This document shows, one piece after another, positions 49,771-51,542 of a stretch of 64,000 nt of DNA (its first letter is position 1; the number at the start of each line of letters is the position of its first letter). The notes beneath the pieces are model-generated. The model searched no databases. It had not been told where the DNA came from and saw only the letters and a program-made list of their open reading frames with translations. The translations under genes and the position numbers were made by a program. The stretch lies in assembly GCA_022729235.1 (NCBI GenBank), contig JALDAJ010000001.1, forward strand, positions 384,001 through 448,000. The letters run 5' to 3'. This DNA is from Candidatus Nanohalarchaeota archaeon. Its GTDB lineage: Archaea > Nanohalarchaeota > Nanosalinia > Nanosalinales > Nanosalinaceae.

Positions 49771-50244
49771 ATGGCGGAAAACAAGCACCCGTTTGTAGAT
49801 GAGGCGGCGAGAAAGTCATCGACCATCGTGACCAAAAACTCTCTTGCAATCCCGGAGGATCGTGAAAAGTACAAGTTAAGTGACAGGGCGTGGAACTGGG
49901 AGAAGATAGTCGACCTGTTCTTCCCACAAGAGCAGTCGCCGAGAAGGAACAAGTACGCAAAGATATTCTTGAGAGAGCTGAAGCAGGAAGGTGAAATAGA
50001 CTCCGAGAAGCTGAACTCTTTCGATGAGTGGGGTCATGAGAAGGGTAAGAGCAACCTGAAGAACCATATATTGCCCAAGCTAAGGAGGCTAGGTATCATA
50101 CAGTATGAGTACCTTGAGTACCGCGACCGGAGTGAGGGCAAGCAGGGTCGCCAGAAGGTTATCAAGCCCGCAAGGTCATTTACCTCGATGCTGGACGCTA
50201 TAGCAAACGGCTGGGCTGCTTTCGAGTCCGCGGCATATGAATAA
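49771..50244 (+). CDS. Hypothetical winged-helix-like protein
   Basis: ILPKLRRLGII followed by a wing-like segment (GKQGRQKVIKP) and a C-terminal helix. Confidence 0.6.
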   Translation: MAENKHPFVDEAARKSSTIVTKNSLAIPEDREKYKLSDRAWNWEKIVDLFFPQEQSPRRNKYAKIFLRELKQEGEIDSEKLNSFDEWGHEKGKSNLKNHILPKLRRLGIIQYEYLEYRDRSEGKQGRQKVIKPARSFTSMLDAIANGWAAFESAAYE

Positions 50245-50254
50245 CTCGGTATGA

Positions 50255-50746
50255 TTTTCCGGAATCCCTGGGAAAGCAGAACCTCTAGAGGGAGAGGTTT
50301 CTCTTCGCGGAGCCGCGATTTTACAGCGCTGTGGCTGTAACTATATTCGCTTCTGCGTGAAGTCCGGTCTCCATTCGAGTGTTGTCGTATTCGCGTGCTT
50401 CAAGTTCGGCTTCGAAGTCTCGTGTGTTGGCGTCGATTGTGGGCACCTTTTCTGGCTGTGAGTGTTGGATGTCATGATAGGTTCCGGGGACGGGCACCAC
50501 CTAGTAAGCAGTACCCGTCTTTAGAAAGTTCCACGGTGTAGAGGCGGCAGAAACTTTCCCTGTTTTTTGTTGTTTTTCGCGGTCGGCGCAACCAGCTCCT
50601 TGCGGAGCCAAGGCGTCATCCCACTTTACTCAGCCAGAATAAACTTAATATGGGAAGCCTTGGCCTTGGTAGCGTTATAATTAGGTCTCACTAGATCCAC
50701 TGACACGTTTCCAGTAAGCCATTGATTAGATTGAGCCAAGACCATT
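50255..50746 (-). ncRNA. Candidate large structured RNA of unknown class containing a 59-codon acidic reading frame
   Basis: TTTTAAA box at 50772-50778; about 10 helices whose G-U pairs are valid only on the minus strand; GCAA tetraloop; long-range complementarities. Confidence 0.6.
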
Positions 50747-50786
50747 TCTATGGAAACCTTGGACTTCGAGGTTTAAAAGGGTACTG

Positions 50787-51542
50787 CTACCTGTTCACGT
50801 GCGGTCTGTACACATCGTCCGCTAGACGGCTATGAACCTCTTCAAGCAACTGTTTAAGGTTTCTGGCGTCGTACTGGTTGTAGTGTACAAGTTTTTCTAG
50901 CGCGTTTTCATCCCCCTGTTTTTCGTAGCGCTTCCAGAGTCTTATCGCTTCTCTACCGTCAACGTCCTCCAGCTCTCGGTTGATACCGAGTCGTGTCTCG
51001 ACCTCTTTCAGACCGCCAGAAATACCGAGGCGCCGGCAGAGGTACATCAAATCGATGTGCGGTGTTTCGATGTCAAGACCGAAGTTCTGCTCCAGGAACG
51101 GCTGGTCGAAGCGTTTCCCGTTGAAGGAGACTAGAACGCTGGAGTTGAAGATTTCCTCCTCTAGTCTTTCCCGGGTCAGGTTCTTTCCCTGTACCAGGGT
51201 CGTGTCGTCCCCGCCACGATAGAAACTAACTGTTGTCACCTTGTTTTTCTTTGCATCAAGTCCTGTGGTCTCGATGTCGAAGAAGCAGGCGTTCTCCTGG
51301 AAGTTACTGTAGAGTCGCCAGAGCTCTTTTGAAGGCAGTTTATCGCCGAAGAAGACGGTGTTGCCGACCTCCAGGTTTTTCTGTGCGCGTTCGAGAAAGC
51401 CGCAGACTTTTTCATGCCGGGTTCCGTTGATAACTCCGCATCCATGGAAGTCGTCCCAGTGCGTTATTCCCTGTTTCCAGAGCTTTTTTTCTGTTTTCTT
51501 TCCTATACCTGGTGCCAGAATAAAGCTGTTTTCAAGACGCAT
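50787..51542 (-). CDS. RNase H-like 3'-5' exonuclease (RNase_H_2/YprB-like)
   Basis: PGIGKKTE HhH, FFDIETTG, FNGKRFD, HIDL, YNQYDA. Confidence 0.88.
   Translation of the reverse strand: MRLENSFILAPGIGKKTEKKLWKQGITHWDDFHGCGVINGTRHEKVCGFLERAQKNLEVGNTVFFGDKLPSKELWRLYSNFQENACFFDIETTGLDAKKNKVTTVSFYRGGDDTTLVQGKNLTRERLEEEIFNSSVLVSFNGKRFDQPFLEQNFGLDIETPHIDLMYLCRRLGISGGLKEVETRLGINRELEDVDGREAIRLWKRYEKQGDENALEKLVHYNQYDARNLKQLLEEVHSRLADDVYRPHVNR

Follow-up and report, generated by a model that had tools for sequence, protein, structure and literature searches.

Introduction

In bacteria, dual-function small RNAs such as SgrS and RNAIII carry a translated mini open reading frame (mini-ORF) and a functional structure in one transcript, and we know of no established case of leader-ORF attenuation in archaea. 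Nanohaloarchaea are symbionts with tiny genomes of about 1 Mb of DNA. Here we analyse a 540-bp interval of one such genome (50245-50786, between two annotated neighbours and empty of called genes) that lies in a 64-kb window, the whole stretch of DNA that was analysed, comprising bases 384001-448000 of a single-contig archaeal genome of 1.03 Mb. The interval is a conserved, single-copy, syntenic mini-locus of one nanohaloarchaeal family, and it holds a structured RNA that is conserved, specific to one strand and not described before, and that has an archaeal promoter of its own. Its parts are a short frame (ORF1) overlaid by two helices (P1 and P2), a kink-turn (K-turn) hairpin directly behind the ORF1 stop, two further hairpins (P4 and P5) and a second small frame, ORF2.

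Unlike SgrS and RNAIII, the unit is archaeal and has ORF1 within its helices rather than beside them, and no base-pairing target for it was found in ribosomal RNA (rRNA) or in the genome. The nearest described counterpart of its K-turn is in the 5' untranslated region (UTR) of l7ae in S. acidocaldarius, for which the accessible text of Daume et al. 2017 (PMC5539422) gives an L7Ae-bound K-turn with a GAU bulge and two G.A pairs. Both are simple K-turns in mRNA with that bulge and those two pairs, placed so as to hinder ribosomes; according to the same text, however, the archaeal l7ae element lies over the Shine-Dalgarno sequence, whereas the K-turn analysed here lies 1 nt past the stop of a probably leaderless mini-ORF. 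In addition, the gene downstream is not l7ae, the K-turn is one element of a fold of ~265 nt, and binding by L7Ae is here a prediction. The K-turn also resembles the terminal K-turn of box C/D RNAs, whose consensus is given in the accessible part of PMC5539422 as RUGAUGA for the C box and CUGA for the D box: GAUGA on the 5' side and GA beside the stem on the 3' side share the same geometry and presumably the same binder, L7Ae. In contrast to box C/D RNAs, the unit reads CCGA, UCGA or GCGA at the D-box position and has an internal hairpin of 30-45 nt instead of guides.

Leaderless short-ORF attenuation in mycobacteria (bioRxiv 10.1101/834739) provides a further comparison, since there too, in the accessible part of that preprint, a short ORF comes first, followed by structured RNA and then by a gene. 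Unlike in leader-peptide control, ORF1 has no regulatory codon run, a general oligo-U terminator is lacking (12/43), and the factor proposed to be sensed is a protein-RNA contact, not a charged tRNA. K-turns, small ORFs and structured leaders are thus known kinds of element; the family is absent from Rfam, and to our knowledge no earlier case has been described in which a leaderless mini-ORF lies inside helices and is followed, one base after the stop, by a K-turn. No description of the unit was found in the literature on Nanohaloarchaea with kink-turns, non-coding RNA or small proteins. A possible lead is STRG.4577.1, a conserved intergenic small RNA (sRNA) of 266 nt from a member of the Nanohaloarchaea in a halite metatranscriptome (Gelsinger et al. 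2020, PMC7002113). It shares the lineage, the intergenic position and the conservation, and its length falls within the AUG-to-P5 span of the unit (265-271 nt); its identity with the RNA described here is unconfirmed, and the accessible part of that paper mentions neither a function nor an ORF or K-turn for this sRNA.

A conserved unit with covarying helices

The unit consists of the following parts.

50772..50778, minus strand: TATA-like box TTTTAAA, 26 nt upstream of the ORF1 ATG (50745)
50626..50745, minus strand: ORF1, ATG start, 39 codons, TAA stop, MVLAQSNQWLTGNVSVDLVRPNYNATKAKASHIKFILAE; maintained frame with a weakly constrained peptide, overlapping P1 and P2
50661..50744, minus strand: P1, long-range 9-bp stem of UGGUCUUGG (50744-50736) with CCAAGGCCA (50669-50661)
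50687..50718, minus strand: P2, hairpin in ORF1, CUUACUGGA (50718-50710) with UCUAGUGAG (50695-50687)
50579..50624, minus strand: K-turn hairpin, 1 nt past the ORF1 stop, consensus in 44/44 sequences
50561..50577, minus strand: A-rich unpaired linker; every relative is A/C-rich here, with differing sequence and length
50523..50559, minus strand: P4 hairpin, stem GGAAAGUU/AACUUUCU, from per-sequence folds of 43 relatives and from alignments
50489..50519, minus strand: P5, G.U-rich hairpin of 14-15 bp, apex consensus CUGCUU-GCA-AGGUGG
50475..50488, minus strand: conserved tail CCCGGAAC, then a T/A-rich triplet (here CUAUCA), from a position table
50321..50446, minus strand: ORF2, GTG start within AAAGGUG, 41 codons, TAA stop, VPTIDANTRDFEAELEAREYDNTRMETGLHAEANIVTATAL, predicted acidic micro-protein
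50245..50320, minus strand: 3' UTR shared with the convergent gene, failing to align between relatives

As DNA, the interval is conserved at about 70% identity, with matches in 42 of the 49 other genomes of the family and in 22 of 23 high-quality genomes, the window's own counted. A covariance model of the RNA (R1) detects exactly one copy per genome in 44/49 other family genomes. Elsewhere in the phylum, represented by 70 genomes in our collection, R1 matches a single genome of a sister family (G051) and none of 20 others, which belong to that family and three further families. Metagenomes contribute 25 loci that encode ORF2, and wherever upstream sequence is present (22/22) the RNA lies directly upstream. 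Alignment of 20 relatives presents the interval as a small transcription unit of several parts, not a single RNA, in which the conserved folded part measures ~265 nt, from 50745 to about 50481, and two conserved small frames cover 246 bases of the interval. The initial annotation, made from the sequence of the window without searches, had proposed a structured RNA of ~500 nt with two domains; a reading as one non-coding RNA of that length has to be replaced, as the first 120 nt are a frame kept in 44/44 loci and the last ~125 nt are a 41-aa gene.

Covarying homologues, by which that proposal was to be judged, are present. Across 44 sequences, the K-turn hairpin and P5 are paired in 95.6% of alignment cells, compared to 37-42% with the partners slid, and 20 of their 28 pairs show compensatory change on both sides, with none of 500 shuffles reaching any of five measures. 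In the covariance alignment, helices 1, 3 and 4 were placed by the model itself and are thereby favoured; RNAalifold on a MAFFT alignment agrees with the covariance-model picture of the K-turn hairpin and P5. P5 itself comprises 14 pairs in that analysis, with 97.7% of cells paired and 11 of the 14 pairs changed on both sides. One G.U pair in P5 is invariant in 43/43 sequences and two further positions are mostly U.G; because these would mismatch on the opposite strand they assign the RNA to the minus strand, in line with the earlier suggestion that G-U pairs fix the strand. Folding of 50255-50746 gave a z-score of -2.92 against shuffles for the minus strand (2/100 shuffles equally good) and -1.00 for the plus strand (16/100).

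The promoter proposed earlier on the strength of TTTTAAA on the minus strand is borne out by the relatives: a TATA-like hexamer is found 22-45 nt upstream of the ORF1 ATG in 42/44 related loci and in 93/2200 control windows. Based on the usual archaeal distance from TATA box to start, the transcript probably begins at the ORF1 AUG or a few bases before it, and would thus be leaderless or nearly so.

The copy in the sister family (L075, G051:C114:789-945) is a complete unit, with an RNA score of 111 bits, an ORF2 match at an E-value of 4e-20 and both neighbours. In nine further genomes of the sister family the search was negative. L075 could be explained by mis-binning, by transfer or by loss elsewhere in the family.

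A maintained reading frame within P1 and P2

Frame 0 of ORF1 is free of stops in all 44 scored loci, while the +1 and +2 frames carry stops in 43 and 44 of them, respectively. The frame occurs in nine length classes between 105 and 129 nt (35-43 codons), every one a multiple of three, and ends in TAA (31 loci), TAG (8) or TGA (5). Where ATG-GCC is replaced by ACG or TTG, as in several genera, an in-frame ATG lies one or two codons upstream. The distance from the ORF1 stop to the K-turn hairpin is 1 nt and constant in 44/44. Synonymous changes make up 1691 of the 9202 differing codon pairs (18%) and non-synonymous changes 7511; in a crude, ungapped comparison the last nine codons gave pairwise differences of 0.36/0.46/0.47 at positions 1/2/3, with no clear periodicity. 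The codons that are conserved mostly coincide with the strands of P1 and P2. The ORF1 frame is therefore maintained, its peptide is weakly constrained, and the conserved sequence in this part is largely RNA. Searches of ORF1 against Pfam and NCBIfam gave no match, and an exact look-up of ORF1 and ORF2 in a protein collection was likewise negative. Read-through of ORF1, or a start at the AUG inside GAUGA, was considered and set aside: by eye, the lengths of the downstream frame differ between two relatives.

The 5' strand of P1 includes the UG of the start codon, and its 3' strand forms the codons T-K-A-K, at about positions 26-29. Relatives have the variants GGCCCUGA/UCAGGGCC, UGGCCCUA/UAGGGCCA and UGGUUCUGGA/UCCAGGGCCA. 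The layout of two helices was seen in printed single-sequence minimum free energy folds of 30 related loci, and a helix-extraction script run on 44 loci recovered P1 cleanly in most rows, with a few rows yielding just an outer helix of 1-3 bp. In a MAFFT alignment made without reference to structure, P1 is paired in 90% of cells, compared to 23-54% with partners slid, and P2 in 90.8%, with three pairs changed on both sides; for the helices inside ORF1 taken together, 90.4% of cells are paired and six pairs are changed on both sides, a number reached by 1/500 shuffles. Five sequences whose start codons are shifted are misplaced in this alignment, and the figures for P1 and P2 are lower as a result. 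When applied to the 5' part of the same alignment, RNAalifold returned the K-turn hairpin alone, and P1 and P2 were scored with the structure named.

A 45th and very divergent locus (L090, G013:C1:120900-121700) fell outside the criteria of the script and is not among the 44 scored. By eye, it has an ORF1 of 35 codons ending at UGA within the K-turn GAUGA, and, at the place of P1, a stem of wholly different sequence, ACUUGACCC/GGGUCAAGU.

A kink-turn consensus behind the ORF1 stop

The hairpin past the ORF1 stop has the layout GUGG / GAU / GA / CGC ... GCG C / GA / CCGC, which reads as a canonical (C) stem GUGG/CCGC, a 3-nt bulge GAU, tandem G.A/A.G pairs and a non-canonical (NC) stem (C.C, G-C, C-G). 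A C helix with a 3-nt bulge, a tandem G.A and an NC helix, the sequence hallmarks of a K-turn, are hence all present. All 44 sequences have the bulge [G/A]AU, the two GA dinucleotides and, beside them, GG/CC in the C stem. All cells (100%) of the C stem, G[C/U]GG/CC[G/A]C, are paired, and one of its pairs covaries, being C-G in 33 sequences, U-G in 9 and U-A in 2. G14 and A15 as well as G70 and A71 are invariant in 44/44, from which a sheared geometry is predicted. At the 3b.3n position the combination is mostly non-Watson-Crick (A.C 22, C.C 12, other combinations 10). The two NC-stem pairs that follow lay outside the covariance model; they are G-C in 42 and G-U in 2 sequences, then C-G in 34 and U-A in 10, and none is unpaired. 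The distal stem, UUGGCUCC-GCAA-GGAGCUGG, covaries heavily, with one pair being C-G in 22, U-A in 19 and A-U in 2 sequences. The genome has one match to the L7Ae family (PF01248), at C1:61684-61956, far from the unit.

These alignments allow the helices drawn in the initial annotation to be sorted. The 9-bp stem UGGUCUUGG/CCAAGGCCA, the hairpin GGCUCC-GCAA-GGAGCU, the A-rich linker at 50577-50561, the stem GGAAAGUU/AACUUUCU and the 12-bp helix GACGGGUACUGC/GUGGUGCCCGUC are all kept in relatives, the first as P1, the stem as P4 and the last as P5, which is really 14-15 bp long; covariation is seen in most of them. Within the first arm, CUUACUGGA/UCUAGUGAG (P2) rather than UUACUG/CAGUGG is the pairing that is conserved, and the proposed GGUUG/CGACC is supplanted by the K-turn, GUGG|GAU|GA ... 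GA|CCGC. Two helices of the second arm, UCCCA/UGGGA and UUUAUUC/GAGUAAA, are without conservation and clash with the K-turn. A third, AGGC/GCCU, survives in part: as AAGGC/GCCUU it is compatible with 86% of cells, and its support is weak. Finally, UUACAGC/GCUGUAA falls in the last codons of ORF2, and UCGCGG/CCGCGA and AACCUCU/AGAGGUU turn out to be local hairpins in the 3' UTR that fails to align between relatives.

P4, P5 and the tail

P4 has a covarying stem that changes from genus to genus and a conserved loop at its apex (consensus CCUGCCAUCUCUACACC, here UCUGCCGCCUCUACACC); a second, longer variant with CUCUGUGGAAC occurs in some genera. P4 was not among the helices that RNAalifold predicted from the MAFFT alignment, and its support is inspection of per-sequence folds. 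P4 in the window and in L010, L019-L022, L027, L030-L036 and L071-L089 shows these two forms, a simple stem with the consensus loop and the longer one, which has an inner hairpin of the type CUGUG-GAA-CACAG and at times one more inserted hairpin. Both forms share UCUAC...GUGGAAC-like bases that are partly like the 3' end of the genome's own 16S rRNA (GGAUCACCUCCA). A role of the P4 loop as an internal anti-Shine-Dalgarno sequence was tried and rejected, a GAGG context being found with 5/17 loops of type A and 13/21 of type B.

Complementarity of the P4 loop and the P5 apex to the 16S and 23S rRNA of the genome is no higher than that of 25 shuffles each, and the genome contains no second or complementary copy of these loops at <=2 mismatches. 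The tail has the consensus C-C-[G/C]-G-[A/G]-[A/C]-C, with G at position 4 in 40/43 sequences and 79-95% A/T at positions 9-11; it could serve ORF2 as a B recognition element (BRE)/TATA-like element, be a weak U-tract or belong to the fold. A general terminator after P5 was not found, as a T-run of 4 or more follows in just 12/43.

ORF2 and its spread

In the relatives, a G-poor stretch of 39-77 nt is followed by AGGUG and the conserved frame M[ND]ANTRDFE[AT]ELQAQ...VVTATAL, which encodes 38-41 residues. Codon-position differences in ORF2 are 0.34/0.20/0.58, and the stop varies among TAA, TAG and TGA; because of this third-position excess and the varying stop, ORF2 reads as coding, and the pattern of substitution indicates that it is a real protein gene. 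A Shine-Dalgarno-like GGUG is located at 50447-50444, and across relatives AGGUG either lies 5-10 nt upstream of the ATG or holds an in-frame GUG. Either ORF2 begins within GGUG, which then doubles as its start codon, or it begins at a near-cognate AUH.

As an observation on the start itself, the first conserved ORF2 codon (50437-50446; L003-L090) is ATG in about half of the genomes. The remaining genomes have ATC, ATT or ATA there, and in every one of these a GTG in frame lies inside GGUG, nine bases upstream.

A profile of ORF2 matches 46 of the 49 other family genomes, and among 20 genomes of the phylum's other families it gave one strong and one weak match. Searching 1.84 billion proteins with the profile produced 38 representatives, in every one of which the match reaches the C-terminus; we take the longer ones to be upstream over-extensions. 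One relative of 41 aa is annotated as a hypothetical protein of Candidatus Nanohaloarchaea archaeon. Pfam, NCBIfam, a protein atlas and viral contigs contained no usable match to ORF2.

Comparison with known RNA families

At gathering thresholds, Rfam has no family in the whole window nor in 20 related loci, in agreement with the earlier claim of an undescribed RNA, and at permissive E-values the single match in 50100-50900 was a chance CRISPR repeat (E 6.3). The signal recognition particle (SRP) RNA of the genome, 270 nt long, is encoded elsewhere (C1:680729-680998, 113.5 bits, above the cut-off), and the best candidate for RNase P RNA is likewise elsewhere (C1:267694-268099), with 50.1 bits compared to the archaeal cut-off of 84 bits, a score that suggests a divergent or reduced RNase P RNA in this lineage. 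The interval, in which the initial annotation had recognised no SRP or RNase P consensus, is neither of these RNAs, the window being without a match and both having been placed elsewhere.

Two classes of sRNA were also examined and rejected. For a box C/D sRNA, the 5' strand reads G[G/A]AUGA and the D-box position [C/U/G]CGA (CCGA in 34/44, never CUGA); C'/D' boxes are absent, the would-be guide regions pair together as a hairpin, and complementarity of the conserved loops to 16S and 23S rRNA does not exceed that of shuffles. In the case of an H/ACA sRNA, the C helix of the K-turn is proximal, not apical, the hairpin is followed by GAA and then variable A/C with no fixed ACA, and there was no Rfam match.

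Possible modes of action

In order to rationalise the arrangement of frame, helices and K-turn, we tentatively favour, at a probability that we would put a little short of even, a reading in which the folded RNA, with an L7Ae-type protein bound to it, acts in cis as a platform and couples translation of ORF1 to the conformation of the RNA or ribonucleoprotein (RNP) and to the output of micro-protein. P1 would hold the 5'-terminal AUG paired, such that translation of ORF1 would need P1 to be opened, and a ribosome finishing ORF1 would have to melt the K-turn 1 nt downstream. Conversely, with the K-turn locked by protein and P1 formed, both the 5' AUG and the end of ORF1 would stay closed. Translation of ORF1 and formation of the RNP would then be mutually exclusive, and their balance would set the amount of both micro-proteins, with the leader ORF acting as a switch that reads the availability of the K-turn protein. 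It is the pairing of the 5' AUG in P1, together with the ribosome at the stop melting the K-turn, that would argue for a platform that acts in cis and is protein-bound.

Several observations weigh against this proposal. Pairwise differences at ORF1 codon positions 1/2/3 are flat (0.28/0.36/0.37), and because a third-position excess is missing the ORF1 peptide itself may not matter, or the frame may be kept for another reason. The alternative pairing that a switch would need, AAGGC/GCCUU between the second AAGGC and the GCCUU of the K-turn, has three cells (one pair) changed on both sides and three unpaired cells at that pair, and its overlap with P1 comes to only about 2 nt where a genus has GGCCCUGA/UCAGGGCC. 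We infer binding of an L7Ae-type protein to the K-turn from the sequence consensus. No link was found from the folded part to the ribosome-binding site or translation of ORF2, and the association between P4-loop type and Shine-Dalgarno context gave a Fisher p of 0.058 with relatedness ignored. Moreover, if CCGGAAC and the T/A-rich bases behind it were ORF2's own promoter, the folded RNA would be a separate transcript.

A more novel reading appears rather unlikely to us. It takes the RNA to be a lineage-specific, dual-function K-turn RNP RNA of ~265 nt whose 5' third is a translated leaderless micro-ORF; the terminating ribosome would evict the L7Ae-type protein and refold the RNA, so that mini-ORF translation and RNP assembly toggle and thereby gate the acidic micro-protein. 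Of the features of an attenuator, the unit has a leader ORF, an alternative helix that is compatible and weakly supported, and oligo-T of at least 4 after P5 in 12/43 loci. Such a toggle, if true, would be an archaeal, protein-sensing counterpart of leader-peptide attenuation.

The strongest competing explanation, doubtful in our view yet somewhat more probable than the toggle, is a free-standing, stable dual-function RNP RNA of ~265 nt, from the ORF1 AUG to just past P5, with a mini-ORF, acting in trans or as a scaffold with L7Ae and further proteins, and with ORF2 promoted separately. Conservation of the P4 loop (~17 nt) and the P5 apex on covarying stems is a pattern seen in RNAs that proteins or other RNAs recognise, and YCSGRAC with the T/A-rich triplet past P5 resembles the GAA..C and TTWTAAA upstream of ORF1. 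Against this explanation, a general terminator is lacking after P5 (T-run of at least 4 in 12/43), the loops have neither special complementarity to 16S/23S rRNA nor a second genomic site at <=2 mismatches, and the fixed 1-nt spacing from ORF1 stop to K-turn suggests interplay in cis. The 266-nt sRNA for which the accessible text of PMC7002113 gives a matching length may be something else, given that the SRP RNA of the genome is itself 270 nt long. If, by contrast, the unit were two ordinary small-protein genes whose helices merely stabilise or shape the mRNA, with no switching, the maintenance of both frames would be accounted for, and a 5' stem and a protein-bound K-turn could plausibly protect the RNA. 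Approximately 17 invariant loop bases, an invariant G.U and the fixed 1-nt spacing would be superfluous for stabilisation, however, and when the AUG at the 5' end of a leaderless frame is paired, one would expect impeded translation and not just protection of the RNA; we consider this explanation improbable.

We give even less credence to a purely non-coding RNA in which ORF1 is untranslated and its open frame is a by-product of RNA conservation. The flat codon-position variability of ORF1, the 18% of differing codon pairs that are synonymous and the coincidence of conserved codons with P1 and P2 strands would fit such an RNA; against it stand the frame itself, open in 44/44 loci where the others are closed in 43 and 44/44, the nine length classes in multiples of three, the in-frame relocation of the start in several genera and a stop that varies among TAA, TAG and TGA only. 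It is barely credible that the unit belongs, in divergent form, to a known family (RNase P, SRP, box C/D, H/ACA, riboswitch or intron): the K-turn does resemble a box C/box D pair (GGGAUGA ... CCGA), but Rfam thresholds are not reached in the window and 20 loci, SRP and RNase P RNAs are found elsewhere, and there are no C'/D' boxes, no CUGA, no rRNA complementarity and no conserved ACA.

Whichever of these applies, a unit of ~430 nt is kept at the same place in nearly every genome of one family despite the tiny size of these genomes, its helices maintained through dozens of compensatory changes, and two conserved micro-proteins are missing from the genome annotation. If the platform reading is true, the unit would represent a new structured RNA family in a domain with very few known cis-regulatory RNAs, the first K-turn directly against the stop of a leaderless mini-ORF as far as the literature was searched, and a concrete archaeal example of coupling between translation and RNP assembly; its bearing is limited by its confinement to one family.

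Genomic setting

The two genes that flank the unit are as follows.

50787..51542, minus strand: upstream neighbour, RNase_H_2 (PF13482) exonuclease-like gene, Pfam E-value 2.4e-42
49771..50244, plus strand: convergent neighbour, 157-aa protein with a weakly supported winged-helix fold

The stop of the exonuclease-like gene lies 8 nt before the TATA box. This gene adjoins the unit in 35/35 loci and the 157-aa gene in 34/35; the neighbourhood named in the initial annotation as a source of possible partners is accordingly conserved, and no test ties either gene to the RNA, whose K-turn motif points to an L7Ae-type binder instead. ARAGORN detected no tRNA gene in the whole window. Among sequencing runs, a single one contains this DNA, a DNA run labelled as a soda lake metagenome that may be the source, and no RNA run was listed. 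The 157-aa protein has no family match in Pfam or NCBIfam. Its AlphaFold2 model (mean predicted local distance difference test score, pLDDT, of 59) gave weak Foldseek matches with E-values of about 0.02, which are mostly winged-helix proteins (PadR/LmrR, TFE-alpha/TFIIE, MarR-like), with an Alba protein at rank 1. On the basis of this predicted structure, the gene may encode an uncharacterised core DNA-binding protein of the nanohaloarchaeal family. Identity between relatives is 75-88% for the 157-aa gene (34/35 loci), much higher than the 60-72% of the exonuclease.

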